This document shows positions 31,461-51,351 of a DNA stretch of 64,000 bases, one piece after another. This DNA comes from Candidatus Parcubacteria bacterium (GTDB lineage Bacteria > Patescibacteriota > Minisyncoccia > Minisyncoccales > JAGMDC01). The position numbers were made by a program, and so were the translations under genes. The stretch spans positions 1,109 through 65,108 of the forward strand of contig JAGMAD010000003.1 in NCBI GenBank assembly GCA_023130975.1, written 5' to 3'. Below the pieces are notes generated by a model, which did not search any database, was not told where the DNA came from, and was given only the letters and a program-made list of their open reading frames with translations. The first letter of the stretch is position 1. The number at the start of each line of letters is the position of its first letter.

Positions 31461-31841
31461 ATGAAAACTATTCTATTTATTGAAGACGAGTCGGCTCTTC
31501 AAAAAACTTTTGGAAGAATCTTAGAAGAAGAAGGATTTGAGGTAATTTCAGCTTTAGACGGAGATGTTGGTTTGAAATTAGCTAATCCGCCGGCCGGCGG
31601 AAAAAAACCTGATTTAATTTTACTGGATCTTATTCTGCCTAGACGCAATGGCTTTGAGGTCTTGAAAGAAATTAAAGAAGATGAAGAGACAAAAGATATT
31701 CCTATTATTGTTTTAACTAATTTAGAAACAATGGATAATGTGAACAAAGCTCTTGAACTTGGAGCTACTACTTATTTAGTGAAAGCAAATTATAGTTTAA
31801 AAGAAGTCATTACAAAAGTGAAACAAACCCTCGGAGAATAA
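31461..31841 (+). CDS. response regulator, receiver domain only (CheY-like), with PPAGG insertion
   Basis: ILFIEDE...PDLILLDLILP...VLTN...K. No output domain. Confidence 0.88.
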   Translation: MKTILFIEDESALQKTFGRILEEEGFEVISALDGDVGLKLANPPAGGKKPDLILLDLILPRRNGFEVLKEIKEDEETKDIPIIVLTNLETMDNVNKALELGATTYLVKANYSLKEVITKVKQTLGE

Positions 31842-34698: not shown

Positions 34699-34742
34699 AT
34701 TTTATAAATCCATTATTATCAATAACTATCGGTTGTTTATAC

Positions 34743-34804
34743 AATCCTGCGGTAAACCGCAGGATTTTTTGTTGTTGTTTCAGAGGAAATTTGCTAAATC
34801 CCCA
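34743..34804. repeat. island junction repeat R1: hairpin aatcctgcgg-taaa-ccgcaggatt + block ttgttgttgtttcagaggaaatttgctaaatcccc
   Basis: The same composite recurs at 37476-37535 and 39370-39430, with degenerate traces at ~41868-41910 and 48335-48350. Confidence 0.75.
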
Positions 34805-34863
34805 CACCAAAATTTTGGTAAGGAGGGTTTACGGCAGACATTTACCTCTTTGTTGAAAAGCTA

Positions 34864-34920
34864 TTGACAAACTTTGTTCTATTTGATAGATTGAAAATAG
34901 AACCTTTTCAATGATATATA
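34864..34920 (+). promoter_or_regulatory. sigma70-type promoter block P1 (TTGACA-N17-TAGATT with TG extension) + conserved downstream box
   Basis: ttgacaaactttgttctatttgaTAGATTgaaaatagaaccttttcaatgatatat; paralogous blocks at 37590, 39431 and 46207. Confidence 0.6.
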
Positions 34921-34964
34921 GGAAGATGGAGAGAAGGTTTGAATGAAAAAAGGGGGTGAAAAGA

Positions 34965-35126
34965 ATGGAAAAGAAAGAGAATGAAAAAGGACAAAGAGAA
35001 AGTATGCCGAGATTAGTTACAGTTGAAGAACGGAAAGGAGTTTTGGGTACCCTACAAAAGATATCTAATGACGAAGGAATTAGTTGCGTGCACTGTCCCT
35101 GCTATACATCGTGTACTCGATGCTGA
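34965..35126 (+). CDS. Cys-rich RiPP precursor peptide candidate (53 aa)
   Basis: MEKKENEKGQRESMPRLVTVEERKGVLGTLQKISNDEGISCVHCPCYTSCTRC. GGGGGTG SD-like box 5-6 nt upstream. Lies 78 nt upstream of the rSAM/SPASM gene. Below the ORF-track cutoff. Confidence 0.6.
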   Translation: MEKKENEKGQRESMPRLVTVEERKGVLGTLQKISNDEGISCVHCPCYTSCTRC

Positions 35127-35204
35127 TATCAAAGTAATAGTGGGCTTGTTAAATAATGAAAGTCCACTTATTTTTTTCTAAGAAAGAAAAAGGAGGTGAT
35201 TCTT

Positions 35205-36617
35205 ATGAAAAAATACAGAATTTCTCGTTTTGTGAAAACTTTTCAGTATAACGAGGTAGTTGCAGTATATCATTCTACCAACATGGAACTTTTGTTTTTC
35301 GATCAAATATCAGCAGAGAAAATCATCAAGCGTTTCAAACATCCCAACGATATTAAGGACCGCATTTTTCAATCCTCAAAAGGGACAACATCTCAAGATA
35401 TAATTTCCTTTCTTATTGAAAAACAGTTCCTAGTTCCTTGGGATTACGATGAGGTTCATGTCTTTCAGAAACAAGTACAGAAACTTCAAAGAGAGCGTTT
35501 TATCCGAGTGATGTATCTGATGCTTACAGATGACTGTAATTTTCAATGCACATACTGTTTTCAGAACAAAGATGAAATACAAGACCTTCAGGCAACCAGA
35601 ATGAGAAAAGATGTCTGTCAGGCAGCTATAGAACTTTTATCTCGAATGAACCAGAAATATCCTATTAATCCGAAAAGAGAGATAACTATTGAACTTTATG
35701 GCGGAGAACCCTTGTTAAACTTTCCCGCCTTAGTTGTAGCTACACTACATACAGAGTACCTTATTAAAAAAAATCGTCTACCGGTAAATACAAAACTTGC
35801 AATGGTAACTAACGGATCTTTAGTAACTCCTGAGATAGCCGAGTTTATTGCTGAACATCAAATTTCTATAGGAGTTTCTATTGATGGTCCAGGAGAGATT
35901 CACGATGTTTATCGTATTTCTAAAAATGGGAAGGGAACATCTCAACGAGCGATTGCTGCATATAGAATGCTTCAAAAAGCTGGTGCCGAAGTAGGGATAT
36001 CATGTACACTAACTCCTTTAGTAGTGGATCACTTTACAGAGATACTTGATTTCTTTGAGTACGAACTCGGATTGCAAAATGGATTAGCGTTTAACATTCT
36101 TCACTACAATCCAAAGATACCAGTAGACAAAACTTACTACAAGAAAGCCGCTGAATGTTTACTTGAGTCATTCTCACGATTTCGGGATAAAGGAATATGG
36201 GAAGAACGGATGATGAGAAAAGCACAATCATTTGCTTATCGGAAAATTATGTTTGCTGATTGTGCTGCAATTGGACACCAATTAGTTATTTCTCCTGATG
36301 GCAAGATAGGAATCTGTCCAGATTTTATCAAATCCCGTCGATTTTTTAACAATTCGGTCTTCGATAAATCTTTTGACCCCTACCAAAACAAGGACTTTCA
36401 AGAATGGTTAAGACGTTCTCCTTTGAATATGCCACAATGTTTAGATTGTGAAGCAATCGCTATCTGTGGTGGAGGTTGCCCGGCAAGTGCAGAAGCTCAC
36501 TATGGAAGTATGTGGGACGTTGATCAAAGAATCTGTCCTCATTCCAAAAAAGCATTAGAATGGCTTATTTGGGACACCTATCAGCGAGTGAAGCAACCTT
36601 TACAAAATACTACCTAA
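35205..36617 (+). CDS. radical SAM / SPASM-domain peptide maturase with N-terminal RRE(PqqD)-like extension
   Basis: AGGAGG 8 nt before the ATG. CNFQCTYC cluster, GGEPLL, C-terminal auxiliary clusters CAAIGHQ...CPDF...CLDCEAIAICGGGCPASA...CPHS. Confidence 0.85.
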   Translation: MKKYRISRFVKTFQYNEVVAVYHSTNMELLFFDQISAEKIIKRFKHPNDIKDRIFQSSKGTTSQDIISFLIEKQFLVPWDYDEVHVFQKQVQKLQRERFIRVMYLMLTDDCNFQCTYCFQNKDEIQDLQATRMRKDVCQAAIELLSRMNQKYPINPKREITIELYGGEPLLNFPALVVATLHTEYLIKKNRLPVNTKLAMVTNGSLVTPEIAEFIAEHQISIGVSIDGPGEIHDVYRISKNGKGTSQRAIAAYRMLQKAGAEVGISCTLTPLVVDHFTEILDFFEYELGLQNGLAFNILHYNPKIPVDKTYYKKAAECLLESFSRFRDKGIWEERMMRKAQSFAYRKIMFADCAAIGHQLVISPDGKIGICPDFIKSRRFFNNSVFDKSFDPYQNKDFQEWLRRSPLNMPQCLDCEAIAICGGGCPASAEAHYGSMWDVDQRICPHSKKALEWLIWDTYQRVKQPLQNTT

Positions 36618-36655
36618 TAGCTAGAATAAGATAATATTCTAGCCGTTTTTTTATA

Positions 36656-37405
36656 ATGAAGAAAGTTAAATATCATAATGTAAAATTTCTTGTTAGGTCA
36701 GCAGAAGATATTTCTGTTTATTTTGCTTTTGAAAAAGAGGCTAAAATATTTAATAGATGGTCTACTATGGAGGATTATTTTTTTAAAAAACATCCAAAGA
36801 TTAAATCATTAAAACAAACACAAGATAGAAAAACAAAAAAGGAATTTATAGAAAGATATGTGAAAGATTATTATAAGTCTCATAAAGAATTGATTGGAAA
36901 AAGAATGAAAGAAGCCGAAACGAGATGGAAAAAAGTTGAACAGAAATTTTTTTATCTCGCTGATAAATTATTTCAAAAATATCCTTGGCCTAAGGGTGAT
37001 TATAGAGCATTTGTGACAATTTGGAATATTTTTCCAAGAGATATCTCTAAGAAAACATTTCAACTTCCTTACAAAGGTAGAATTTTCAAAAAAGTTGAGG
37101 CAATTATTGTCCACGAAATGCTTCATTTTTTATTTTACGATTATCTTTTTAAGTATTTTCCTAAATATAAAAAATCCCAATATTCCTATGCTGTTTGGGT
37201 TCTTTCCGAGGCTTTTAATGAAGTAATAATGGCAGAACCAAAATGGAGAAAGATTTTTTCTTTACAACTACAACCTTATCCAGAAACCGTAATTGTAAGA
37301 AAAAAAATTAGAGAATTAAGAAAGAATAAAAAAACAGTAAAAGAAATTTTAGAAGAATTACTTCCATTTGTAATTCAAAAATATACAAGACCCCCTTCAA
37401 AATAA
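36656..37405 (+). CDS. HExxH-motif protein (putative metallopeptidase), paralog of 41187..41798
   Basis: AIIVHEMLHFLFYDY. Shares layout (W+K.E..FF ... HExxH) with the second-locus protein. Confidence 0.5.
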   Translation: MKKVKYHNVKFLVRSAEDISVYFAFEKEAKIFNRWSTMEDYFFKKHPKIKSLKQTQDRKTKKEFIERYVKDYYKSHKELIGKRMKEAETRWKKVEQKFFYLADKLFQKYPWPKGDYRAFVTIWNIFPRDISKKTFQLPYKGRIFKKVEAIIVHEMLHFLFYDYLFKYFPKYKKSQYSYAVWVLSEAFNEVIMAEPKWRKIFSLQLQPYPETVIVRKKIRELRKNKKTVKEILEELLPFVIQKYTRPPSK

Positions 37406-37475
37406 TTATTTCAGATTTCGTAATACCTTATAAGTTTCATTGACGAATCTTTAATAATTTGAAAAAGAGAAAAAC

Positions 37476-37535
37476 AATCCTGTATTGAACTGCAGGATTT
37501 TTTGTTGTTGTTTCAAAGGAAATTTGCTAAATCCC
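37476..37535. repeat. island junction repeat R2
   Basis: aatcctgtattgaactgcaggatt + ttttgttgttgtttcaaaggaaatttgctaaatcccc. Confidence 0.75.
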
Positions 37536-37589
37536 CACCCCAAATTTTGGTAGTAGGGATTTACGGCGAGCATCTATTTTCAAAATTAA

Positions 37590-37646
37590 TTGACAAAATC
37601 TATTGAGCTTGGTAAATTAAAAACAGTACCTTTTTAGCAATATAGC
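37590..37646 (+). promoter_or_regulatory. promoter block P2 (TTGACA-N17-TAAATT)
   Basis: ttgacaaaatctattgagcttggTAAATTaaaaacagtacctttttagcaatatagc; near-identical to 46207-46263. Confidence 0.6.
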
Positions 37647-37677
37647 ATTTTTTAAATTAAATATGGATTGAATGAAT

Positions 37678-37733
37678 CTCGGATAATCTAATTCGTTTAT
37701 CAAGAGTTTGGTAGATAAATTAGGCTATCCGAG
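37678..37733 (+). ncRNA. conserved 5'-leader hairpin, copy L1 (cis-regulatory RNA candidate)
   Basis: ctcggataatctaatt...aaattaggctatccgag: ~16 bp stem, ~24-nt loop. Homologs at 39503-39552 and 46295-46358. Confidence 0.55.
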
Positions 37734-37792
37734 ACACCAGAATAGCGAGAACCTTGGATTAGCCATTGAATAAAAAGGAAGTAAAAGAAAAA

Positions 37793-38395
37793 ATGAATGA
37801 CAAGAAAAAGAAGATAGTTGAAGTAGGGGCAATAGTTGCTTTATTAATGGTAGCAATGGCCAGTGTTATGGTAGCACCAGTAATAGCGGCACCAGATGGA
37901 ATTTCAGAATATGCGGTTATCTCAGGATCCTATTCGTGGCTAGGAGTACCTTATGATTATGGCGGAGAGTCGAAAAGTGGTGTTGATTGTTCTGGTCTAG
38001 TTCGTCAAGTGTATATGCGAGCAAGTGGGCGACCTGCAAGTTGTTATGACGGAACAAGAGGATGGCATGCATGCTGTTCTAAAGGAACAGGAGCATGTTA
38101 TTATGACAGAGGAGCAGAAAATATAAGAAGAGCTTCTTACCCGGTATATCCGCCAAGACCTGGTGATGCAGTAATTTTCGTTGATAAAAAGAAAGGAACA
38201 GCAACCCATGTTGGAATCTATGTAGGGGCTAGTCCCAATGGTTATTGGGACAGTTATTTTATCCATGCTGGATATGGTCCGGGGAAAGTGGTGAAAGATC
38301 GCCTTTACTATAGCTCTTACTACGGAACAGGCTGGTGGTACAGGAACTACAATATCTACTTTGCTAGATACAATCCAGATTACTGGGTATCGTAG
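37793..38395 (+). CDS. secreted NlpC/P60 (C40) family peptidoglycan endopeptidase with shared N-terminal module
   Basis: Signal MNDKKKKIVEVGAIVALLMVAMASVMVAPVIAA. GVPYDYGGESKSGVDCSGLV (catalytic Cys), ATHVGIYVG (His), FIHAG. The track start (TTG 37766) is less likely than ATG 37793. Confidence 0.8.
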   Translation: MNDKKKKIVEVGAIVALLMVAMASVMVAPVIAAPDGISEYAVISGSYSWLGVPYDYGGESKSGVDCSGLVRQVYMRASGRPASCYDGTRGWHACCSKGTGACYYDRGAENIRRASYPVYPPRPGDAVIFVDKKKGTATHVGIYVGASPNGYWDSYFIHAGYGPGKVVKDRLYYSSYYGTGWWYRNYNIYFARYNPDYWVS

Positions 38396-38442
38396 AGGAT
38401 GTAGTGAAACGAAGATAAAAGATACTCAAAACATAAAAAATT

Positions 38443-38480
38443 AAAAGGGCAGATTTCTTAATTACTGCCTTTTTTATTTT
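38443..38480. terminator. shared convergent-gene terminator hairpin (module 1)
   Basis: aaaagggcagatttcttaattactgccttttttatttt; homolog at 47017-47057. Confidence 0.65.
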
Positions 38481-38487
38481 CTTCTGA

Positions 38488-39273
38488 TTATTTTCCTTCC
38501 AAGAGTTTATTAAGGGTTTCCTCTGAGATGCGGGGACAAACAGAAGGTGAGTTTAGTTTCCATAGTTCCTTGTCTTTTATTAATTCAAAAGTAATAGTTT
38601 CCGTTTGTGTTTCAAAGTCATATTCTATAATAGAAGAATCGGTTGATGGATTGTAAAAATAATCGCAATCAAAACTTACTAATCCAGGACCGTTGCCCAT
38701 TTCCTCAATAGAGATTTTTTCTCCTGTTTCTATGTTTCTTGCTCCTTCAATAAAGCCAGATGAAATTCCCTCTTTACAAAAATATCTTACTTTAACAAAA
38801 TACTGTTCTTTTATCATAGATGGATATTCATCAATGATTTCATATTTTTTGATAACCATTTGTAAATCTGTTTCTAATATAAAATTCTCAGTACTATATT
38901 TTTCAATCGTTGTTTCTTCATCAAATCTTTTTCCAGCAATATCCGCTTTCAGAAATCTTTCAACAACTTCTCTCGGATTTAAATCTTCTGCGTAATATTC
39001 CATTTCTGCTTCGTATTTTTCTTTTAATTCAGCGATTTCCTGTTTGTGTTCTGATTCTATTGTTGCTTGATTGAATAAATCAGCCAATCTCCAATAATCC
39101 CTTATGAGCTCCTTTCTTTCGCTTTGAAGAGAGGTGAGTTTTTTTGTAATATCTTCCTTCTCCTTTTTTATGTTTGAGATTTCTCTATAACATAAACCAA
39201 CTGTCAAGGCTAAGAAGACAATGACAAAAATAAAAATCAATTTTAGATATTTTTCTTTTTTGATTTTTTCCAT
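38488..39273 (-). CDS. membrane-anchored partner protein (N-terminal TM, coiled coil, unknown C-terminal domain)
   Basis: MEKIKKEKYLKLIFIFVIVFLALTVGL... shares its first 12 codons and promoter with 47071..48261. ATG 8 nt after TAGGAT, no SD. Confidence 0.5.
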   Translation of the reverse strand: MEKIKKEKYLKLIFIFVIVFLALTVGLCYREISNIKKEKEDITKKLTSLQSERKELIRDYWRLADLFNQATIESEHKQEIAELKEKYEAEMEYYAEDLNPREVVERFLKADIAGKRFDEETTIEKYSTENFILETDLQMVIKKYEIIDEYPSMIKEQYFVKVRYFCKEGISSGFIEGARNIETGEKISIEEMGNGPGLVSFDCDYFYNPSTDSSIIEYDFETQTETITFELIKDKELWKLNSPSVCPRISEETLNKLLEGK

Positions 39274-39369
39274 ATTAATTAATCCTATCAAAGAAAAATG
39301 GTCTGGTCAAATTCAATTCGCGGACGAATTCATTACCAAATCCCTGATAATCTGAAAAAAGAAAAAGTC

Positions 39370-39430
39370 AATCCTGCGGTTTCGCCACAGGATTGATTAT
39401 TGTTGTTTCAAAGGAAATTTGCTAAATTCC
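39370..39430. repeat. island junction repeat R3
   Basis: aatcctgcggtttcgccacaggatt + gattattgttgtttcaaaggaaatttgctaaattcc. Confidence 0.75.
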
Positions 39431-39486
39431 TTGACAGGTTTTCTTGCGTTTGATAGAAAAAGGATAGAACCTTTTCAATAATATAT
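39431..39486 (+). promoter_or_regulatory. promoter block P3 (TTGACA-N17-TAGAAA)
   Basis: ttgacaggttttcttgcgtttgaTAGAAAaaggatagaaccttttcaataatatat. Confidence 0.6.
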
Positions 39487-39502
39487 GGACAGAATATAGT
39501 TA

Positions 39503-39552
39503 GGATAGCCTAATTTGTTTATCAAAAGTTTGACAAATAAATTAGGCTATCC
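39503..39552 (+). ncRNA. conserved 5'-leader hairpin, copy L2
   Basis: ggatagcctaattt-gtttatcaaaagtttgacaaat-aaattaggctatcc (14-bp perfect stem), followed by the conserved atccgttgaaNNgaaaggagga RBS block. Confidence 0.55.
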
Positions 39553-39601
39553 AAGAAGAGCAATCTTGAGATATCCGTTGAATAGAAAGGAGGAAAAAAC
39601 T

Positions 39602-39730
39602 ATGGAAATAGAGAATGAAGCCACTATGGCTAAGTTTAGCGTCTTGAAAGAAGTTCATCCCAAAGTAGAACCGATGCAATTGCATTCGATGAAATGTCAA
39701 GGCCAGTGTACCTGTCGTTGTTGTAAGTGA
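39602..39730 (+). CDS. Cys-rich RiPP precursor peptide candidate (42 aa)
   Basis: MEIENEATMAKFSVLKEVHPKVEPMQLHSMKCQGQCTCRCCK. AGGAGG 8 nt upstream. Lies 58 nt upstream of the second rSAM/SPASM gene. The track ORF 39515.. uses an unlikely TTG start. Confidence 0.65.
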   Translation: MEIENEATMAKFSVLKEVHPKVEPMQLHSMKCQGQCTCRCCK

Positions 39731-39788
39731 ATAGAGCGGAGAGTGGAATGTAGATTTTCACTCTCCTAAATTTTTAGGAGGATATGAA

Positions 39789-40802
39789 ATGAACGAATTA
39801 ATAGCATTAAAGTCTCCCCTATCTGTAAATTTTGAAGTGACACCCGTATGTGATTTGAACTGCGAATTTTGTTTCAATGCTGAAGTGGAATGCAAAAGAA
39901 TGGAGCATCCCTCATTGAATCAAGTCAAATCTATTTTACGTGCACTTGCCAAAGCAGAGGTTTTTGAAGTTAGGCTTTTTGGAGGAGAATTTTTTATCTA
40001 CCCTTATTGGAAAGAAGTGTTGGAATATGCAGATTCTCTTGGTTTTTTTCTGTCGTTTGTATCTAATGGCACACATATAAACAAAGATGTAGTAAAAAAG
40101 ATGCTATTACATAGAATAGTTTGCGGTGCTATTTCATTACATGGCAAAAAAAGTATCCATGAGAGAATAACAGGGGTGGATGGTTCGTTTGAGGCAACAC
40201 TGAAAGGCATAAAGTCCTGCATTGATTGTGGATTGGGAATTTCTATTTTATATACCTTAACGAAAGATAACCATCGATTTATTTTTGAGACCTGCGAATG
40301 GTTAAAGATGAACGGTATCAATATAGACGAAATAAATGTGGGACGCTTAACTCCTTACGGTAGAGCAAAATCTGACTGGGATAAAGCCAAACTTTCTCTT
40401 AAAGATTACTTGATTGTTTTTTCTCAGATAGAGAAAGTTAGAAAGGAATTGGATATTTTAGCCAATTTTGGCGATGCTTTTCCTTTGTGTTTATTGCCCC
40501 AGAAATATCACGATTTTGTGGTTGGTTGTTGGCAAGGTACAGGTTTTGGGCATATTGATCACATGGGAAATGTTCGTTCCTGTCCTATCGCCAAAGGGAG
40601 TTACGGTAACATTTTAGAGACTCCGCTGATTGAAATATGGACTGATCGCCTAGCTCATTTTAGATCTTTGAAGTGGTTGCCTGCCAAGTGTCGCGAGTGC
40701 GATAATTTCTGCGGTGGCGGATGTTCTGCTTCTCGTTATAATGGCGGTATGTATGCTCCGGACGAATTCATTTCACAAAATGAGGAGGTCAAAAATGAAT
40801 GA
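39789..40802 (+). CDS. radical SAM / SPASM-domain peptide maturase
   Basis: CDLNCEFC cluster, GGEFFIYP, C-terminal CWQGTGFGHID...CPIA...CRECDNFCGGGCSASR. Confidence 0.85.
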   Translation: MNELIALKSPLSVNFEVTPVCDLNCEFCFNAEVECKRMEHPSLNQVKSILRALAKAEVFEVRLFGGEFFIYPYWKEVLEYADSLGFFLSFVSNGTHINKDVVKKMLLHRIVCGAISLHGKKSIHERITGVDGSFEATLKGIKSCIDCGLGISILYTLTKDNHRFIFETCEWLKMNGINIDEINVGRLTPYGRAKSDWDKAKLSLKDYLIVFSQIEKVRKELDILANFGDAFPLCLLPQKYHDFVVGCWQGTGFGHIDHMGNVRSCPIAKGSYGNILETPLIEIWTDRLAHFRSLKWLPAKCRECDNFCGGGCSASRYNGGMYAPDEFISQNEEVKNE

Positions 40803-41052
40803 AAAATTTGTGCCTAAAGTAAACTGTCGGTTTAAAATCAGGCAAGATATTGATGGCTATATCGGATTTTTTCAGACAAAGGGTGTTTTGACTTTCAATG
40901 AAGTTGGAGCATTCATCGTGAGCCAAATGACGGGAGATAAAAATATCCAAGAAATTGGGAAATTAGTTGGGGATAATTTTCCAAAAATGAAAAATCCTGC
41001 GGGTGAGGTTGTGTCTGTTGCTAAGCAGTTGCAAGATTCAGGATTTTTCTGA
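40795..41052 (+). CDS. PqqD-like RiPP recognition element (RRE) protein, 85 aa
   Basis: ATG overlaps the rSAM stop (ATGAATGA) and GAGGAGG lies upstream. ...LTFNEVGAFIVSQMTGDKNIQEIGKLVGDNF...EVVSVAKQLQDSGFF matches the PqqD winged-helix pattern. Confidence 0.6.
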   Translation: MNEKFVPKVNCRFKIRQDIDGYIGFFQTKGVLTFNEVGAFIVSQMTGDKNIQEIGKLVGDNFPKMKNPAGEVVSVAKQLQDSGFF

Positions 41053-41186
41053 GTGCGAATTGGCCAAGGAGATAAATTAAAATTACTTTGGCCATTTTTT
41101 TATACAATCTTTAATCACAAAATAGCCAAAATTTTAATAATAGAGTATTATAATAATAATATAAAAGAATTTAAGAATTTTGTCCT

Positions 41187-41798
41187 ATGATGATACAATT
41201 TATATATTCAAAAAAAAGAGAAAAAGAGAAATTATTACATATTCATTCGGAATATCAATGGTTTGTTGATAATAATTTTCCTATTGTATTACCTAAATTT
41301 TATAAAAAACTATACCAAACAACAAAAGGGAATAAGAAACTATTCAAAAAAGAATTAGATAAAAGGTTGGATAATATTTATGATAAAAATGTTTATAAAA
41401 AGAGAAAAGAAATAATAAGAAAAAATTGGAAAAGAAATGAAAAAGAATTTTTTAATATTTTAAGAAATTTCAATGTTAAAATAAAAGATAAATATATTTG
41501 CTATATTACTTTATATGGGCCACAAGGACAATTTGAATATCCTAATATTATTGACTTGCGAAGTAATAAAAAAATAGATATCGAAGAAGCTGATATAACG
41601 ATTGCCCATGAATTGATGCATTTAATATTGTTTGATAAATTTAAAAAATTAGGATTGAACTATAAGAAGACAGAAGGTGTAATTGATATGTTTTTTTTGG
41701 AAACAAAACTAAAAACCATCTTCTCTGGATACAAATTACAAAGTATAGCTGTTCATGATAAAAGACTATTTAAAGAAGTAAAAGATAGCCCTAAATAA
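41187..41798 (+). CDS. HExxH-motif protein (putative metallopeptidase), paralog of 36656..37405
   Basis: ITIAHELMHLILFDKF. Confidence 0.5.
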   Translation: MMIQFIYSKKREKEKLLHIHSEYQWFVDNNFPIVLPKFYKKLYQTTKGNKKLFKKELDKRLDNIYDKNVYKKRKEIIRKNWKRNEKEFFNILRNFNVKIKDKYICYITLYGPQGQFEYPNIIDLRSNKKIDIEEADITIAHELMHLILFDKFKKLGLNYKKTEGVIDMFFLETKLKTIFSGYKLQSIAVHDKRLFKEVKDSPK

Positions 41799-41955
41799 TA
41801 ATTTTGCCGACAGGCAAGATAATAGTATCCAATTCCGATATCGACATCCGATGTTGACATTGAAAACCTAATCCTGCAGCAAATCGTAGGGTTTTTTATT
41901 GTTATTTTATGTAAAATTTAGTAGAATTAAAGAATGAAATTAAAACCCAAAAATT

Positions 41956-42819
41956 ATGGCAATTGAGAAAATCCTAAAATTTACCTGGAATGAGTTTATT
42001 TACGGCGGACATTTACTTTCATTAGGAGGTGTTGCTATAGTGCTTTTTTCAGGTATTTTGCTGAATATTAAAATAACCTGGGATTGTTTGTTTGTAGTTT
42101 ATTTAATTATTTATATAGTTTATTTATACAATCGTTTCAAGGAAGTTCATATAGATTATCTAACCAATCCTCAAAGAACTAAGCATCTCAAAATCTATTT
42201 TTCTAAAATACCTAAAATTTTCTATGTTATAATTTTTATTATAATAGGAAGTTTGATATATTTTAGTAATGTTTGGGCTTTAATTTTTGGGTTGTCTTTA
42301 CTTCTACTTGGGTGGCTTTATACAATAGTTTTCAAAAAAATTACCAAAAAGATAATTATCTTTAAAAATTTATCTGTTTCCGCAACTTTTTCTTTATTAG
42401 TATTTTTTCCGCTTATTTATTATTCTTGCCCATTAACTATTTCTATTTTATCTATTGCTTTTTTAATTGTGACTTTTGTTTATTTTAAGGCGTTTACGAT
42501 GCAGGTTTTTTTAGATGTAAAGGATGTAGAAAGCGATGAGAAACAAGGCCTGCTTACTTTTCCAGTTATTTTTGGAAAGGAAAAAACACTTAATATTTTA
42601 GGAATAATAAGTTTGTTGTCTACTGCGCCGATTCCAATCATTTTCTCTCTTTATTTTAATATCTTTCCTATATCAACTTTAATGCTTTTACTAACTATTC
42701 CTTTTAATTTTTTTTGTTTTAGCCAAGCCAAAAATCAAAATTATCATTCTTACACTCTTGAAAGTTCAGAATTTATTCTCTGGCCAATTTTAATTCTAAT
42801 TGGTGAAATCATAATATGA
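41956..42819 (+). CDS. UbiA-family integral-membrane prenyltransferase
   Basis: 8-9 TM. First motif YNRFKEVHIDYLTNPQRT (degenerate NDxxDxxxD), second FLDVKDVESDEKQGLLTFPV. Confidence 0.7.
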   Translation: MAIEKILKFTWNEFIYGGHLLSLGGVAIVLFSGILLNIKITWDCLFVVYLIIYIVYLYNRFKEVHIDYLTNPQRTKHLKIYFSKIPKIFYVIIFIIIGSLIYFSNVWALIFGLSLLLLGWLYTIVFKKITKKIIIFKNLSVSATFSLLVFFPLIYYSCPLTISILSIAFLIVTFVYFKAFTMQVFLDVKDVESDEKQGLLTFPVIFGKEKTLNILGIISLLSTAPIPIIFSLYFNIFPISTLMLLLTIPFNFFCFSQAKNQNYHSYTLESSEFILWPILILIGEIII

Positions 42820-44435
42820 TAGAATTTCTTCTTATCAATAAGGTCTTAATATTTCTAATTAACGCTATAGCACTTTGGCTGGCTCTTTTAGTTTATAAAA
42901 ATAATCCTAAAGGAAAAACCAATAAATTATTTATTTTAATGACAGTTTCAATGCTTTTTTGGGTTAACTTTTCTTATTTTGCAAGATTTGTAGGGCAAGA
43001 TCAAATTTATCAATCTCTATCGTTTATCAAAATTGCCTGGTTCGTCACTCCTTTATTTTTTTTGTTCCTTTCATTAGTCGCAGTTCATATTATTCAAGAA
43101 GAAAAGAAATATCATTTCTTAAATAAAATCGTTTTATTTTTAGGAATAATCATTGCCTTTATCACTGGATTTACTAATTTAGTTATTGAGGGAATAAAAT
43201 TTGAAAATGGAAACCTGATAGTAATATACGGAAAAGGAATGATGTGGTTTCTTGCGATAGGACTTTTTTTAATGTCCGCCGCTTTATATCCATTGTTTAA
43301 AAAATATTTCAAATCTTTAGAAAAGGAAAGAAAGAAAATTGAATTTTTCTTGCTTGGAATTTTTATATTTTATTTAGCCAATATTATTTTCAATATTGCT
43401 CTTCCTATTAAATTCAAGGTCTCCCAATACTACTATATAGGTGACTATTCCACGATTTTTCTTTTAGGTTTTACTGCTTATGCTATTGTCAGGCACGAAC
43501 TTTTTGGAATTAAGGTTGTTTTAACTACTCTTTTTGTTACCCTAATTGCTATTCTGCTTTTGCTGGATATTATAGTTTTCACTCCAGAACTTCTTATTCA
43601 ACTTTTTAAAGGTTTGATTTTAGCATTCTTCCTCTACTTTGGATATTTATTAGTTAAGAGTGTTTTAGGGGAAATTGAAAGAAGAAAGGAGTTGGAAAGA
43701 TTAACTATTCAATTAGAAGAAGCCAATGTTAATCTTGAAAGACTGAGTCAATCAAAAACCGAGTTTATTTCTATGGCTTCGCATCAGTTGAGAACCCCGT
43801 TAACATCTATTAAGGGCTATAGCACAATGCTTTTGGAAGGAAGCTATGGAAAGTTTGAGAAAAAAGGAGAGAGAGTGCTAAAAAATATTTTAACTTCTAC
43901 TGACCGGTTAATTAAAATCATCAATGATTTATTGAATATTTCTCGAATTGAATTAGGAAAATTGGAATTAGAAAAAACACCTGCTCAGATTAAAGAAATT
44001 ATTGACAGTGTTTATAAGGAGATGAAACCAAAAGCTCAGGAAAAGAATCTTAAACTTATTTGGCAGAAGCCAATAAAATCTTTACCTGAAATCAATATAG
44101 ATATTTTGAAAATAAGACAGGTTATCTTGAATATTGTGGATAATGCCATTAAGTATACTGATAAAGGGAATATAACTATTAAAATCCAAAATCTAACATC
44201 CAAAATCCAAATTGTAATTTCTGATACTGGCAGAGGATTTACCAAAGAAGAAAAAAATCGTGTTTTTGAATTATTTGTTAGAGGTCGAGCAGGTATAGAT
44301 ACTTTTGTTGAGGGAACAGGGATTGGTCTTAATGTTGCCAGAAAATTTGTTGAACTCCACGACGGCAAAGTCCAAGCCGAATCCGAGGGCAAGGGCAAAG
44401 GCGCCACTTTCTATATTGAACTGCCGGTGGAGTAA
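42816..44435 (+). CDS. sensor histidine kinase with N-terminal 7-TM sensor region
   Basis: ATGA overlap with UbiA. H-box FISMASHQLRTPLTSI; N/G1/G2 boxes (DTGRGF, GTGIGL). Confidence 0.88.
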   Translation: MIEFLLINKVLIFLINAIALWLALLVYKNNPKGKTNKLFILMTVSMLFWVNFSYFARFVGQDQIYQSLSFIKIAWFVTPLFFLFLSLVAVHIIQEEKKYHFLNKIVLFLGIIIAFITGFTNLVIEGIKFENGNLIVIYGKGMMWFLAIGLFLMSAALYPLFKKYFKSLEKERKKIEFFLLGIFIFYLANIIFNIALPIKFKVSQYYYIGDYSTIFLLGFTAYAIVRHELFGIKVVLTTLFVTLIAILLLLDIIVFTPELLIQLFKGLILAFFLYFGYLLVKSVLGEIERRKELERLTIQLEEANVNLERLSQSKTEFISMASHQLRTPLTSIKGYSTMLLEGSYGKFEKKGERVLKNILTSTDRLIKIINDLLNISRIELGKLELEKTPAQIKEIIDSVYKEMKPKAQEKNLKLIWQKPIKSLPEINIDILKIRQVILNIVDNAIKYTDKGNITIKIQNLTSKIQIVISDTGRGFTKEEKNRVFELFVRGRAGIDTFVEGTGIGLNVARKFVELHDGKVQAESEGKGKGATFYIELPVE

Positions 44436-44467
44436 TCTTGTTGCTTGGCGAAGCCAAGCACAAAAAT

Positions 44468-44987
44468 ATGTATATTATTAAATCAAAAGATTTTATTTTG
44501 AGGCCTTTTAAAAAAAGCGATGAGAAATCATTAGCTCAAAATATAAATAATAAAAAAAATCTATAGAAATACTCTTGAAATTTCTTATCCTTATATCTTA
44601 AAAGATGCTAAAGAATGGATAACAGAAGATTTAAAGGAACAAAAAAAGAAAAAACCGACAATGATTAATTTTGTGATTGATATAAATGGCGAAGTTGTTG
44701 GTTCAGTTAGTTTTTCTAAAATCAAAGAATATAAAGCTGAATTGGGTTATTGGCTAGCCGAGAAATATTGGAACAAAGGCATAATAACAGAGGCAGTGAA
44801 GTTGGCAACAAAGTTTGGATTTAAAAAACTAAAATTAAAAAGAATTTATATTCCCACTTTTTCCTTTAATAAGGCTTCTATGCGCGTGACAGAGAAGAAC
44901 GATTACAAACTTGAAGGCGTTTTAAGAAAGAATGTAAAAAAAGATAATAAATTTATTGATGAATATATTTTTGCTAAAATTAAGTAA
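44468..44987 (+). pseudogene. GNAT (RimJ/RimL-type) N-acetyltransferase, frameshifted in an A8 run
   Basis: MYIIKSKDFILRPFKKSDEKSLAQNINNKK stops at 44560-44565. Removing one A of 44552-44559 joins it to ...IYRNTLEISYPYILKDAKEWI...MINFVIDINGEVVGSVSF (ORF 44661..44987). Confidence 0.7.
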
Positions 44988-44996
44988 AATAGATTT

Positions 44997-45401
44997 ATGA
45001 AAATATTTATTTCACATAAGTTTCGCGGAGTAAATAAAAAAAGTCTAAGAAAAAAATTAGAGAAAATTTCTTTTGTACTTGAAAAATCAGAGCATAAGAC
45101 ATTTATTTTTTTTCGAGATAAAAAAAACTGGGAAGAAAGAGAATTTCCATCTGGACAAGTAATTCTTGAGGCATTTTCACAAATTAAAAAATGTGATATT
45201 CTTTTTGGTTTTATTGATAACCAAAAGATGAGCGAAAGCATGCTTTTAGAAATTGGTTTTGCCAAGGCCTTAAATAAAAAGATAGTTCTGTTGATTTCTA
45301 AAAAATGCTCTTTCCCGACCTTAGAAGCTGTTTCTGACCGAGTGATTAAATTTGATGATATAAAGCAAATTGATAAAGAATTACTTAGAATCAAAGTTTA
45401 G
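44997..45401 (+). CDS. nucleoside 2-deoxyribosyltransferase-like (Rossmann) protein
   Basis: MKIFISH...CDILFGFIDNQKMSESMLLEIGFAKALNKKIVLL resembles the NDT-family Glu motif. Weak call. Confidence 0.4.
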   Translation: MKIFISHKFRGVNKKSLRKKLEKISFVLEKSEHKTFIFFRDKKNWEEREFPSGQVILEAFSQIKKCDILFGFIDNQKMSESMLLEIGFAKALNKKIVLLISKKCSFPTLEAVSDRVIKFDDIKQIDKELLRIKV

Positions 45402-45537
45402 GCTTGAGTTGAGAGAAGTTTTTAATTCAAAATAAGGAGTAGTGGTTTTATATCTGCTCTTTTTTTATTAAAATTAGAGATGTTTTGTATAAGCTTGTTT
45501 TTTAGGTAAAAAAATGATACTTTTAAATTAGTGAATT

Positions 45538-45984
45538 ATGAATAATAAAGAATTTGAAGTTTGTGTCAGGGCTATAATTCAATACCAGAACAAGATTTTA
45601 GTTTGCAAGCATAAAGAAAAAGATTATTATTTCTTTCCCGGCGGACATATTAATTTTGGTGAAAGCGCGAAAGAAACACTTTTGCGTGAGATGAAGGAAG
45701 AATTAGATTTACTGCCCGATAAATGTAAATTTATCGGTGCAGTAGAGAATTTTTTTGTTGAAGATAATGAAAATCATCATGAAATTAATTTAGTTTTTGG
45801 CACAGAGGTTGAAAAAATAAATGCCGAGAGTAAAGAAAATCATATAAGTTTTGTTTTAATGGATAGAAATCAATTTTCGCAAGAAAATATTTTACCAATT
45901 GCCTTAAAGAAAGCAATTTTAAAATGGCTAAAAGATAAAAAAATATTCTGGGCAAGCCAGATTTATAATCAATCAATTTTATAG
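45538..45984 (+). CDS. NUDIX hydrolase
   Basis: Nudix box GGHINFGESAKETLLREMKEELDL. Confidence 0.85.
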   Translation: MNNKEFEVCVRAIIQYQNKILVCKHKEKDYYFFPGGHINFGESAKETLLREMKEELDLLPDKCKFIGAVENFFVEDNENHHEINLVFGTEVEKINAESKENHISFVLMDRNQFSQENILPIALKKAILKWLKDKKIFWASQIYNQSIL

Positions 45985-45985
45985 C

Positions 45986-46133
45986 GTGAAAAAGCAATAT
46001 TCTAAAAATTTAGAGAAAAAGTGGCAGAGGTTTTGGGAGAAAGAAAAAATTTACAAATTTAATCCTCAAAAAAAAGGAAAGATTTTTTCCATTGATACTC
46101 CGCCTCCTACAGTTAGTGGTAAAATGCATTTAG
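45986..46133 (+). pseudogene. valS: valS 5' fragment (first ~49 codons), displaced by cassette insertion
   Basis: GTG 1 nt after the NUDIX stop. MKKQYSKNLEKKWQRFWEKEKIYKFNPQKKGKIFSIDTPPPTVSGKMHL is identical to valS 48405.. over 118 nt, then diverges. Confidence 0.85.
46016..46133 (+). repeat. 118-bp perfect direct repeat, left copy
   Basis: aaaaagtggcagaggttttgggag...gtaaaatgcatttag, identical to 48432-48549. Confidence 0.9.
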
Positions 46134-46144
46134 ACATAGTTTCG

Positions 46145-46173
46145 AGAATATTGAGGTCAAACCTCAATATTCT
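46145..46173. repeat. palindrome agaatattgaggt-caa-acctcaatattct at the cassette junction
   Basis: 13-bp arms. Core shared with 7207-7233 and 55023-55049. Confidence 0.75.
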
Positions 46174-46206
46174 TTTATACCATAAGGACAAAAACCGAAA
46201 TCGTCA

Positions 46207-46263
46207 TTGACAAAATCTATTGGGCTTGATAGATTAGGAATAGTGTCTTTTTAACAATATAGC
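46207..46263 (+). promoter_or_regulatory. promoter block P4 (TTGACA-N17-TAGATT)
   Basis: ttgacaaaatctattgggcttgaTAGATTaggaatagtgtctttttaacaatatagc. Confidence 0.6.
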
Positions 46264-46294
46264 ATTTTTTCAATAAAATATGGATTGAATGAAT

Positions 46295-46358
46295 CTCGGA
46301 TAACTTAATTTGTTTGTCAAAATATCAAAAGTTTGGTAGATAAATTAGGCTATCCGAG
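46295..46358 (+). ncRNA. conserved 5'-leader hairpin, copy L3
   Basis: ctcggataacttaattt...taaattaggctatccgag. Confidence 0.55.
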
Positions 46359-46418
46359 AGAACAAAATAGCGAGAACCTCGGGTAGATCCGTTGAACGAA
46401 AAGGAGGAAAAAGAAAAA

Positions 46419-46973
46419 ATGAATGACAAGAAAGAGAAAATAGTTAAAGTAGGAGTAATCGTTGCTTTATTAATGGCAGCGATGGCAAGTGTATCAGTGA
46501 TGCCGATTCAGGCAGCAAACGGTCAAATAATGAACAAGCCAGTCTATGGAACATTCACGGTTAGTCAGGAATTTGGAGTATATAACCCAACATATGGATG
46601 GCATACAGGAATAGATATTGTTCCTAAATACTATTATTGGGTTTTTGCTCCCTTAGATGGCAAAATTGAAGCAACCGGCTATGACTGGAGGGCTGGCGAC
46701 TACATTGTGATTTCCCATATACCCGGTGATTCAAATCAGTATCGTGGATATTATCCTTCGGAAGTATGGACAAAATACTACCATCTAGATGGAATTTTCG
46801 TTGAACAGGGAGAACGAGTTACGCGGGGACAAGTGATTGGACATATCGGAGACACAGGTACTTGGTGCACTGGCACGCATCTTCATTTTGAAATCCGAGA
46901 AAATGGAAGATATGGAACAGCTGTGAATCCTCGAGAATATATCAGATTTGGTGACGGAAAAGATATCTGGTGA
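46419..46973 (+). CDS. secreted M23-family peptidoglycan metalloendopeptidase with shared N-terminal module
   Basis: MNDKKEKIVKVGVIVALLMAAMASVSVMPIQAA. HxxxD (WHTGIDI) and HxH (THLHFEI) Zn ligands. AGGAGG upstream. Confidence 0.85.
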   Translation: MNDKKEKIVKVGVIVALLMAAMASVSVMPIQAANGQIMNKPVYGTFTVSQEFGVYNPTYGWHTGIDIVPKYYYWVFAPLDGKIEATGYDWRAGDYIVISHIPGDSNQYRGYYPSEVWTKYYHLDGIFVEQGERVTRGQVIGHIGDTGTWCTGTHLHFEIRENGRYGTAVNPREYIRFGDGKDIW

Positions 46974-47016
46974 ACATAGAAAGATTCCTCTGGGGGTCAA
47001 AAGATTAAAAAAGATA

Positions 47017-47057
47017 AAAGGGGCAGATTCTTTAATTACTGCTCCTCTTTTTATTTT
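47017..47057. terminator. shared convergent-gene terminator hairpin (module 2)
   Basis: aaaaggggcagattctttaattactgctcctctttttatttt. Confidence 0.6.
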
Positions 47058-47070
47058 GGGCTTATTTGGT

Positions 47071-48261
47071 TTATTTAATTGTGATTATCCAAATCTCACC
47101 TCCTCGAGCGAAAGCTATGTTTTTACCGTCAGGACTCCAAGAAGGATTAAAATCATCCATTTTATCCGTAGTTAATTGTGTTTCGTTGCTTCCATCACTA
47201 TTCATTATCCAAATATCACTATTTGTTTCACCTTCGCTCCAAATATTCATACCGTTAGTGTTGTTTTTGAATAGGCTAAAAACTATCTTTTTCCCGTCAG
47301 GGCTCCAAGAAGAATCTCTAGCGTTTGCTTCAGATTCAGTCAATTTTTTTTGATTACTTCCATTACTATCCATTGTCCAGACCTGACAAGGCCCATTACA
47401 TAAATTAAAGAGTATTTTGTTACCATCAGGACTCCAAGAGCTTTTCTTTATTGTTGACCACCAAAAAAGTCTTTCATTTTCTTCTATTTTTTTTAATGGT
47501 TTTTTATTAGTTCTGTCACTATTTATTATCCAGAGATCATAAGAAAGAGTATGACCTACGCTTCCAATATGTTCAAGTTTTAATGGAGTAGCTTCAAAAA
47601 TTATTTTATTTCCATCAGGGCTCCACGAAGGATTTCTCTTACCCCTTAAATCTTTAATTAAGCGTCTTTGATTCTCTCCATCACTGTCCATAATACATAA
47701 ATCAATGGCATTATCTTCTAACGAAACATAAACTATTTTTTTACCATCAGAGGAAAAAGATGAATTGATCGCACTCTCTTCTGGCTTAGTTAACCTCTTC
47801 TGATTACTGCCATCGCTGTCCATTATCCAAAGGTTGGATTTCCTGTCCCATTCTTCGCCTTCGCCGAACCTTTTAATTCGTTCTCCTTCTCTATTAGATA
47901 CATAAACTATTGTTTTACCATCAGGACTCCAAGAAGGATCAGAATCATCTCCCTCAGGCCCTGTTAATCTTTTTTGATTGCTTCCGTCGTTATCCATTAT
48001 CCAAATATCAAAACTTCTTTTTTTGTGATGGTCATAGTCAGAGTGAGTTACGAATACTATTTTACCGCCATCAGGGCTCCAAGAAAAACCATAAACTCCT
48101 GCTCGAAGATTGGTTAATTGTTGTTCTTTAAGGTTAACTTCTTTCTTTTCTTCTGGCTTTTTAATCTCTCTAAAAAAATAGGAGCTTGATCCAAGGATAA
48201 GAGAAATTAAAATAACTCCAAAAACTAATCTTAGATATTTTTCTTTCTTGATTTTTTCCAT
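47071..48261 (-). CDS. membrane-anchored TolB-like (PD40/WD40-like) beta-propeller protein
   Basis: MEKIKKEKYLRLVFGVILISLIL anchor, then repeated SWSPDGKKIVF...DIWIMDSDGSNQKRLT units (7-8 blades). Confidence 0.8.
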   Translation of the reverse strand: MEKIKKEKYLRLVFGVILISLILGSSSYFFREIKKPEEKKEVNLKEQQLTNLRAGVYGFSWSPDGGKIVFVTHSDYDHHKKRSFDIWIMDNDGSNQKRLTGPEGDDSDPSWSPDGKTIVYVSNREGERIKRFGEGEEWDRKSNLWIMDSDGSNQKRLTKPEESAINSSFSSDGKKIVYVSLEDNAIDLCIMDSDGENQRRLIKDLRGKRNPSWSPDGNKIIFEATPLKLEHIGSVGHTLSYDLWIINSDRTNKKPLKKIEENERLFWWSTIKKSSWSPDGNKILFNLCNGPCQVWTMDSNGSNQKKLTESEANARDSSWSPDGKKIVFSLFKNNTNGMNIWSEGETNSDIWIMNSDGSNETQLTTDKMDDFNPSWSPDGKNIAFARGGEIWIITIK

Positions 48262-48404
48262 ATTAATTAACTCTATCAAAGAAAAATGGTCTGGTCAAAT
48301 TTTTATTTTTCATTACCAAATCCCCAATCATCTGAGAATGATGAAAAATTGTTGTTGCTATTTTACGATAAATCGGCTAAAATTTAATGAGACGGTCTTA
48401 ATAT

Positions 48405-50982: not shown

Positions 50983-51351
50983 ATGCCTAAGATACTTTTA
51001 ATTGAAGACGAGCAAATTTTATCTGAGATGTATATAGATAAATTTTCTGAAGCAAAGTTTGAAGTAATTTCAGCTTTTGACGCTGAAAGCGGTTTAAAAA
51101 TAGCCCAGAAAGAAAAGCCAGATTTAATTGTTTTAGATATTATTTTACCTAAAAACGATGGCATTTCTTTTTTAGAGAATTTAAGAAAAAACAAAGAAAC
51201 ATCTTCAATGTTAGTTGTTGTTTTATCTAATTATGATAATCCTAAGGCAAAGAAAGAGGCACGAAGATTAGGAGCTATGGATTATTTAATAAAAACCGAT
51301 TTTACGCCAACTGGATTGACTAAAAAAATAAAAGAATATTTACCCAGTTAA
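50983..51351 (+). CDS. response regulator, receiver domain only
   Basis: ILLIEDE...KPDLIVLDIILP...VLSN...K. No PPAGG insertion. Confidence 0.88.
   Translation: MPKILLIEDEQILSEMYIDKFSEAKFEVISAFDAESGLKIAQKEKPDLIVLDIILPKNDGISFLENLRKNKETSSMLVVVLSNYDNPKAKKEARRLGAMDYLIKTDFTPTGLTKKIKEYLPS

Follow-up and report, generated by a model that had tools for sequence, protein, structure and literature searches.

Three transcripts encoded within a 64,000-nucleotide (nt) stretch of a Candidatus Parcubacteria genome (contig JAGMAD010000003.1, positions 1,109 to 65,108; the whole stretch is hereafter the window) are predicted to carry a shared 5' leader in which a long, near-perfect hairpin lies between the promoter and the Shine-Dalgarno sequence (SD). 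They encode a ribosomally synthesized, post-translationally modified peptide (RiPP) operon headed by a Cys-rich precursor (precursor 2), a secreted NlpC/P60 (C40) peptidase, and a secreted M23 metallopeptidase. Comparison of these leaders with those of related loci indicates that the element is probably a transcribed, structurally constrained, cis-acting RNA hairpin, and we infer that it acts post-transcriptionally. As judged from sequence, it is a new, narrowly distributed, putatively cis-acting leader stem-loop of a class that is already known. Our favored interpretation as a whole, namely, a sense-strand leader stem-loop that acts as an RNase III-type processing or stability determinant for the three mRNAs, is tentative (probability, roughly 0.4).

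A shared hairpin in the predicted leaders of three transcripts

A 14-mer that forms the 3' arm of the hairpin, AAATTAGGCTATCC, occurs exactly at positions 37717, 39539, and 46342 of the plus strand. It faces diverged 5' arms at 37681 (copy 1, c1) and 46298 (copy 3, c3) and its own reverse complement at 39503 (copy 2, c2), which bears out the three sites proposed in an earlier, sequence-only reading of this DNA. That reading described a stem of 14 to 17 bp closed by a loop of 22 to 30 nt; folding indicates instead that the supposed loop is itself paired and that the real stems are near-perfect helices of 22 to 27 bp with loops of 4, 4, and 10 nt (Table 1), the last having arisen in copy 3 by a 9-nt internal duplication. 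The minimum free energies (MFEs) of copies 1, 2, and 3 are −26.9, −28.2, and −27.5 kcal/mol (z = −7.1, −7.6, and −7.7 versus dinucleotide shuffles), and they score 91.4, 89, and 88.6 bits, respectively, with R2, a covariance model generated from five window-type members (c1, c2, c3, and the orthologs L067 and L160 described below). All five have a stem of 22 to 27 bp with 0 to 2 mismatches, and their loops differ in sequence and size (GAGU, AAGU, UUUUU, and the 10-nt loop). The stems are situated 40 to 55 nt 3' of a predicted TG-extended promoter and 40 to 55 nt 5' of the SD, which lies outside the stem in all three window copies. The promoters are indeed near identical, as had been noted, with TTGACA-17 nt-TA.A.. 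and a TG extension upstream of each copy.

No U-tract follows any of the stems (3' flanks, GAGACACC, AAGAAGAG, and GAGAGAAC), and a terminator scan does not list them. The downstream tail, previously described as conserved, is so only in part: copies 2 and 3 share ATCCGTTGAA-NNN-AAAGGAGG, whereas copy 1 instead has AGCCATTGAA...AAAGGAAG and L160 lacks the tail. It is common to the paralogs of this genome and L067, and its sharing looks like a result of common ancestry or gene conversion rather than of constraint. A small second hairpin in the copy 1 leader has counterparts in copy 3 (CGAG/CUCG) and copy 2 (CAAGA/UCUUG) and is not kept in L160. Copies 1 and 3 each show a tandem duplication of an early leader box (AGTACCTTTTTAGCAAT and ATAGCATTTTTTAAAT). 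Short upstream open reading frames (ORFs) starting from the conserved AUAUGGA box (MD, MDRI, ME, and MEKTTG, each followed by a stop codon) were dropped, as they have neither an SD nor a conserved peptide.

The covariance-model search that the sequence-only reading had called for recovers exactly three leader sites in the window, all in one orientation, with the minus-strand matches being those same sites. Applied to 92 other loci, R2 finds only L067 and L160, in both of which the pairing is kept. A pattern scan of 185,579 species genomes with GGATANNNTAATT-N14-40-AATTANNNTATCC retrieved 77 stretches, 76 of them chance matches in unrelated taxa, the sole true match being L067. Because the copies are confined to one position and one orientation, a dispersed palindromic repeat is disfavored, and an origin as a miniature inverted-repeat transposable element or repetitive extragenic palindrome-like repeat was rejected on the same distribution: three window leader copies in one orientation and, among the 92 loci, only the orthologs. 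A weak R2 match at positions 800 to 870 of locus L085 was also rejected, being an unrelated perfect palindrome that adjoins an apparent tRNA end. The earlier failure to match the leader to any known class agrees with our scans against Rfam 15: at gathering thresholds, the window yields only tRNAs, and a permissive scan of positions 34700 to 46500 gives the leaders only weak chance matches far under the thresholds. Membership in an Rfam family was accordingly rejected, with no score near any gathering threshold.

Conservation of pairing in orthologous leaders

L067 is the orthologous precursor 2 locus, where the hairpin is kept with four stem changes. It is a 2.7-kb contig (accession no. CAZFFN010000077.1) carrying a Parcubacteria-like RiPP operon in a metagenome-assembled genome labeled as that of a Thermoplasmatales archaeon, in which it is probably a binning contaminant. 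L160 is the locus of the closest NlpC/P60 homolog (P0114, 73% identity), upstream of which lies a homologous hairpin. Its leader comprises the same promoter, a ATAGAACCTT box, a AAUAUGGA box, and then the hairpin CCACGGGGTAGTTGATTTGTTTATCAA-TTTTT-TTGGTAGATAAATCAGCTATCCTGTGG, which pairs at 27 of 27 positions although both arms have changed. In a gapless MAFFT alignment of the five members, which was not fitted to the structure, 94.1% of the cells are paired, and 8 of the 27 pairs show changes on both sides, compared with 1.9 ± 1.2 in shuffles and 0 to 1 in controls where the partner was slid by 1 to 3 columns. The clean compensatory changes are found in the outer stem (U-A to C-G and U-A to A-U) and in the UAAUU/AAUUA segment (A-U to G-C). 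Within the window, the stem differences are all one-sided (G-U wobbles or mismatches), as the sequence-only reading held, with zero compensatory changes.

The fold is strand-specific in four of the five members because of G-U pairs. The sense and antisense MFEs are −39.3 and −14.1 kcal/mol in L160, −26.9 and −20.4 in copy 1, −27.5 and −18.9 in copy 3, and −28.1 and −22.0 in L067; copy 2 (−28.2 and −27.9) is the only near-symmetric member. When c1 is compared with L160, the leaders are 38 to 57% identical outside the hairpin and 72% identical inside it, the catalytic domain being 70 to 82% identical, and the apical ~30 nt are nearly the same, with one gap column and three loop mismatches. This conserved island in a diverged leader points to purifying selection on the hairpin, and the helix is shown here, at the level of the alignments, to be selected for pairing and not for sequence. 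The earlier preference for an RNA structure over a protein operator is thus upheld by the pairing kept in L160, the sense-strand bias in four of five members, and the island common to c1 and L160.

The hairpin has a narrow distribution. It is absent in the NlpC/P60 homologs L161 to L164 (65 to 67% identity) and in the M23 homologs L165 to L168 (≤60% identity), and it was not found in L169 and L170, homologs of the radical S-adenosylmethionine (rSAM) maturase of the precursor 2 operon, of which L169 ends just 5' of the SD and is therefore uninformative. A protein-anchored metagenome scan provided 80 loci of the same RiPP system (rSAM identity, 45 to 76%), and blastn searches of these orthologous rSAM loci with four window leaders returned zero matches.

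A further feature of L160 is seen at positions 188 to 215, where the outer 3' arm (CTATCCTGT, also given as CUAUCCUGU) is perfectly complementary over 9 bp to a downstream segment (ACAGGATAG or ACAGGAUAG). Pairing of the arm with this segment excludes the hairpin, and an additional 13-bp hairpin lies directly 5' of the SD. Neither the alternative pairing nor the 13-bp hairpin is kept in the window copies.

Duplication of the promoter-leader module

The three copies are not independent. Copies 1 and 3 belong to one 87% identical cassette (positions 37589 to 37866 and 46206 to 46492) that runs from the promoter through the signal peptide, beyond which the catalytic domains differ; the M23 and NlpC/P60 signal peptides are themselves ~87% identical in DNA. 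The full duplicated cassette holds two genes (37589 to 39358 and 46206 to 48338), with only its ends conserved. At the far end, the convergent downstream genes have N termini and upstream DNA that are 93% identical (39232 to 39313 and 48220 to 48301), and the terminator between the cassette genes is also common to both cassettes. The middles differ, with NlpC/P60 in one and M23 in the other and, likewise, a 267-amino-acid uncharacterized protein versus a PD40 beta-propeller. This arrangement suggests that domains of secreted effectors are exchanged as modules, while the regulatory and export parts ahead of them stay constant. A 119-nt direct repeat whose copies are 100% identical (46015 to 46133 and 48431 to 48549) flanks the cassette with the M23 and PD40-repeat genes; the repeat is the 5' coding region of leucyl-tRNA synthetase (gene, 48405 to 50819), the upstream copy being a fragment. 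Because of this exact flanking repeat, the M23 cassette looks like a recent insertion or duplication; it may also be an assembly artifact.

Because copies 1 and 3 share the duplicated cassette, the window appears to hold about two independent hairpin lineages. A fourth, paralogous leader that had been overlooked precedes the gene for precursor 1 and has no hairpin (Table 1). The proposal of one regulon is sustained insofar as the common promoter-leader module is consistent with coregulation, but it rests in part on a duplication that also copies the signal peptide.

A possible RNase III-type processing determinant

We favor an RNase III-type reading because the element is a near-uninterrupted helix of at least two turns with no U-tract, no SD inside, and no conserved pocket. 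Near-perfect double-stranded RNA of this length is a textbook RNase III substrate, and the window hairpins have this geometry (≥20 bp of nearly uninterrupted double-stranded RNA). All three mRNAs would be transcribed from one duplicated promoter-leader module, and a double-strand-specific endonuclease of the RNase III type would cut the stem, releasing the 5' part of the leader. The removed part would carry a CCUUUU box, which is partly paired with the SD in four of five modeled leaders, and cleavage would set the half-life and translatability of the mRNA. The same processing step would apply to the precursor 2 peptide and to the NlpC/P60 and M23 enzymes. In partition-function models, the SD partly pairs with leader nt 5 to 7 (CCU) and becomes freer upon 3'-arm truncation in four of five leaders. 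The RNase III processing step itself is a conjecture that we consider somewhat less likely than not.

Several observations weigh against this interpretation. All eight of the two-sided changes stem from L160 alone, and in an indel-aware alignment, only about three clean compensatory substitutions and one coordinated loss of a C-G pair remain. The members also amount to just three effective lineages (c1 with c3, c2 with L067, and L160). No hairpin is present in the precursor 1 leader or in many related loci, and because of this, the element appears to be dispensable for expression as such. In the models, the SD is unmasked to a modest degree and, in copy 3, not at all; the 64-kb window contains no RNase III signature motif; and a sequence-specific binding protein would account equally well for an apical stem that is conserved and keeps its G-U pairs fixed.

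The 5' untranslated region (UTR) hairpin of Staphylococcus aureus cspA provides a precedent: when RNase III cuts it, the mRNA becomes more stable and is translated more (Lioliou et al. 2012, PMC3386247). As in cspA-type leaders, a long near-perfect helix lies in the 5' UTR between the promoter (here predicted) and the SD, with no terminator, and loss of the leader portion upstream would plausibly expose the ribosome-binding site and alter mRNA stability. Unlike in cspA, to which there is no sequence similarity, cleavage here is only predicted, the SD is 40 to 55 nt from the stem and weakly masked in the models, and the hairpin is common to three functionally linked transcripts by way of a duplicated module. 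A 5'-UTR element of Haemophilus influenzae is also reported to be targeted by RNase III (PMC12721329).

With intrinsic terminators and attenuators, the element shares a stable stem-loop in the leader; unlike them, its stems are A/U-rich and have no U-tract, which the true terminators of this genome do have (AATCCTGCGG...CCGCAGGATTTTTT at 34743 and 37476). An RNA thermometer of the ROSE or fourU type was rejected, since the SD is 40 to 55 nt 3' of the stem, outside the hairpin.

Alternative explanations for the hairpin

The hairpin could instead be the RNA site of a dedicated protein, for example, one that represses or activates translation or a LoaP/NusG-paralog-type factor for processive antitermination, which we consider unlikely. 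Such a protein would recognize the apical helix: the outer stem covaries, but the apical part (GUUUAUCAA...UUGGUAGAU) hardly changes between the window and L160, and G-U pairs occupy fixed positions in four of five members; however, the loop varies in sequence and size. A leader-recruited factor could override the terminator-like hairpin inside the precursor 2 operon (39738 to 39766). LoaP-dependent leader hairpins are known from Bacillus antibiotic gene clusters, and those systems likewise have a leader RNA hairpin 5' of a secondary-metabolite operon with an internal terminator. The present element differs from them in its much longer stem and in that the same hairpin precedes two peptidase genes that appear monocistronic, with a terminator directly after each, where antitermination would be pointless. 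Moreover, Pfam and NCBIfam scans identify no LoaP/NusG paralog or other candidate RNA-binding protein near the loci and show no RNA-binding or regulatory domain in the neighboring uncharacterized proteins.

We regard as improbable a 5' stabilizing stem-loop on a shorter transcript made from a secondary promoter, which would shield the mRNA from decay that depends on its 5' end, without any step being regulated. 5' stem-loops are known as stabilizers (discussed in PMC3386247), and weak sigma-70-like sites are present inside the leaders directly 5' of two stems, at 46251 to 46279 (TTAACA-17-TAAAAT, 10/12) and 39472 to 39500 (TTTTCA-17-TATAGT, 9/12). Such sites are nonetheless absent or poor in copy 1 and L160, and the promoter scan of the window (G+C content, 33.5%) gives a count near the shuffled level (70 sites versus 59.7 ± 7.8 in shuffled sequence). 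The conserved promoter is the primary one, and in copy 2, the predicted secondary start falls within the 5' arm itself.

About as improbable is a functionless or selfish palindrome that, after entering one leader, was carried along when duplication and gene conversion copied the promoter-leader-signal-peptide module. It would explain the location of copies 1 and 3 in a duplicated cassette, with the M23 cassette between 119-nt exact repeats, and the greater likeness of the window paralogs to each other than of c1 to its ortholog L160, a pattern suggestive of concerted evolution; the precursor 1 leader, too, works without the hairpin. A mere passenger would not be expected to retain pairing through multiple two-sided changes, as in L160, or to stay conserved while the surrounding leader decayed, as between c1 and L160. 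Nor does it fit the single orientation and position of the three window copies, the lack of copies at 92 other loci except L067 and L160, and the apparently ancestral covarying hairpin at the equivalent position in relatives (see below).

Still less credence can be given to a DNA operator, at which a dimeric transcription factor bound to the inverted repeat 3' of the promoter would repress the three genes. The dyad symmetry is clear, with copy 2 almost a perfect palindrome; GATAG-like strings are found repeatedly, namely, in the −10 region, at +1, and in each of the arms; and the cluster encodes a seven-transmembrane (7TM) histidine kinase. Yet the outer arms change on both sides with pairing kept, and 4 to 6 conserved G-T positions per copy would be mismatches in a duplex DNA dyad; the operator is disfavored because it would conserve the half-site sequence and not preserve those positions. 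Its length of 50 to 66 bp would also be very long for an operator, and no DNA-binding response regulator adjoins the kinase, given that 31461 to 31841 and its repeat ORF at 50983 to 51351 appear to be stand-alone receivers. The direct repeat GATAGA-N5-(G/A)ATAGA was considered separately as a response-regulator site and dropped, because the extended −10 box overlaps it and relatives do not keep it.

A riboswitch or another leader that senses a ligand (such as cell-wall fragments or the mature peptide), as the ligand probing put forward in the sequence-only reading presupposes, is hardly credible: the leader is long and conserved with no known family match, and the L160 3' arm could switch to its downstream partner, but that alternative pairing is not kept in the window copies, no terminator or SD-sequestering expression platform is attached, and the near-continuous helix has no conserved internal loop, bulge, or junction, its unpaired positions being one or two variable mismatches and a variable loop.

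A probably older leader RNA in more distant relatives

The precursors of the relatives are conserved (...AKFSVLKG...LKCAGQCTCRCCK), the family ending in ...KCAGQCTCRCCK. In 12 distinct metagenomic loci, a different hairpin, which we term A3 type, lies between a TTGACA-17-TAAGAT promoter followed by a CTTTAACA box and the SD (Table 1). It consists of 30 interrupted pairs in four helices and includes an inner 9-bp stem and an asymmetric internal loop of 14 nt (UCAAUAAAGUUAAAU) that is conserved. In the A3 alignment, 88.5% of the cells are paired, and 20 of the 30 pairs show compensatory changes, against 7.5 ± 2.1 in shuffles and 5 to 9 in slid controls; the sense strand folds better in 11 of the 12 leaders. 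No Rfam match was found for the A3-type leader. R1, a covariance model of this leader, detects one copy per locus, always 5' of the precursor, and none by other genes within ±6 kb, which weakens the regulon claim. Its best match in the window (22.9 bits, 39509 to 39604) aligns only the SD and the ATG flank, without structural recognition.

The window hairpin resembles the A3-type leader in its equivalent position, preceded by the promoter and a CTTTAACA-like box and followed by the precursor SD, in being a long sense-strand hairpin with covariation, and in a short common string (UAUCAAAAGUUUG in the window and GUCAAUAAAGUUAAA in the relatives). It differs from the A3 type, which has interrupted pairs, the 14-nt internal loop, and the inner 9-bp hairpin, whose foot abuts the SD, and which is found only 5' of precursors and never beside peptidase genes. 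The rSAM maturase of the window is 73% identical to that of L094 and 47% identical to that of L144, with L094 and L144 at 48% identity to each other. Because both L094 and L144 have the A3-type element, parsimony on these identities makes it appear ancestral, with the window-type stem appearing to be a remodeled, lineage-specific descendant or replacement. The two are probably related by descent, the link being one of position and phylogeny between elements that are not alignable. The A3-type element has been lost in several relatives: in L080, the promoter is ~25 nt from the ATG, and in L085 and L098, the 5' arm is replaced.

The proposition that every leader of the RiPP family has a stable hairpin was rejected, as z of a local hairpin is below −2 in only 11 of 43 distinct leaders, some of these being upstream terminators. 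A pseudoknot between a 5' CUUUAAC box and GUUAAA of the internal loop in the relatives is 95.8% paired, but it is mostly invariant and does no better than shuffles; it is kept as no more than a lead.

Of the two elements, the A3-type leader bears the closer resemblance to an RNA that binds a ligand or a protein. Both might be receptors of a dedicated signal (a protein, the mature Cys-rich peptide, or a cell-wall fragment), which we consider quite unlikely. If true, such a receptor would switch on a peptide effector and two secreted peptidoglycan hydrolases in one step in an episymbiotic, genome-reduced bacterium and would constitute a new cis-regulatory RNA class governing an "attack" regulon in the Candidate Phyla Radiation (CPR).

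Implications for gene regulation in the CPR

Gene regulation in the CPR (Patescibacteria) is almost unknown, and such bacteria cannot be grown alone. The presence of one module before a RiPP precursor operon and two secreted hydrolases suggests that a few secreted effectors are coordinated as a set after transcription, and the locus illustrates how duplication of the promoter-leader module can bring genes into this set. No RNA motif linked to a RiPP precursor is known to us, a statement based on comparison with Rfam and not on a search of the literature. The older covarying leader RNA of the CPR RiPP family, absent from Rfam, may be the more robust novelty. If processing or protein binding of the window hairpin holds true, it would offer a handle for heterologous expression of the cluster and a marker for coregulated CPR effector genes; if not, it is one more lineage-specific leader stem-loop.

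Genes served by the leaders and neighboring elements

Proteins encoded in the window, which derives from an ENA metagenome scaffold, match database entries labeled Candidatus Parcubacteria at 99 to 100% identity; the NlpC/P60 protein has a 100% identical database entry named C40 peptidase from Candidatus Parcubacteria. The precursor family is kept in 60+ metagenomic loci. Precursor 2 is followed by an rSAM-SPASM maturase (39789 to 40802), a PqqD-like protein, an HExxH protein, a UbiA-family protein, and the 7TM histidine kinase; the HExxH-motif protein has no Pfam or NCBIfam assignment.

Table 1. Coordinates of the leader elements and of the genes that they precede
Feature	Position	Strand	Description
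Hairpin copy 1	37677..37734	+	27 aligned stem positions, 25 paired (including 4 G-U), 2 mismatches; loop GAGT
Hairpin copy 2	39503..39552	+	22 bp, 1 G-U, one A/C mismatch; loop AAGT
Hairpin copy 3	46294..46359	+	27 bp including 5 G-U; 10-nt loop
Predicted 5' leader of NlpC/P60 mRNA	37625..37792	+	~168 nt; start inferred from −10 box; whole-leader MFE −36.6 kcal/mol, z = −2.9
Small second hairpin of copy 1 leader	37746..37756	+	CGAG-AAC-CUUG; weak, from MFE structures
Promoter of NlpC/P60 transcript	37590..37618	+	TTGACA-17 nt-TAAATT, TG extended; scan 10/12 with TG; aligned with paralogs
Promoter of precursor 2 operon	39431..39459	+	TTGACA-17 nt-TAGAAA, TG extended; read directly from sequence; aligned with paralogs
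Promoter of M23 transcript	46207..46235	+	TTGACA-17 nt-TAGATT, TG extended; promoter scan
SD and start codon of NlpC/P60 gene	37775..37795	+	SD AAGGAAG
Secreted NlpC/P60 (C40) peptidase gene	37793..38395	+	Pfam PF00877, E = 5.6e-14
Cys-rich RiPP precursor 2 gene	39602..39730	+	MEIENEATMAKFSVLKEVHPKVEPMQLHSMKCQGQCTCRCCK
Secreted M23 metallopeptidase gene	46419..46973	+	Pfam PF01551, E = 1e-20
Paralogous promoter and short leader of precursor 1	34864..34965	+	Same −35/−10, same ATAGAACCTTTTCAAT box, TTGAAT...AAAGG tail; no hairpin
A3-type leader of relatives	L094 5652-5804		Equivalents in L081, L082, L089, L093, L095, L105, L107, L109, L112, L144, and L155

The terminator-like hairpin at 39738 to 39766 (GGAGAGTGGAAT...TTCACTCTCC and then a T-rich run) lies between precursor 2 and the rSAM maturase and is kept in L067. 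Such a hairpin directly after the precursor is the usual arrangement for producing precursor mRNA in excess.

A repeated module at 34741 to 34850, 37474 to 37575, 39369 to 39430, and 41868 to 41942 consists of the intrinsic terminator AATCCTGCGG...CCGCAGGATTTTTT followed by a conserved TTGTTGTTTCA(A/G)AGGAAATTTGCTAAAT, with an additional ~45 nt carrying the palindrome CCAAAATTTTGG in two of the copies. It is situated upstream of the shared promoters at variable distances, and its candidate roles are those of an upstream activating site or a small RNA.

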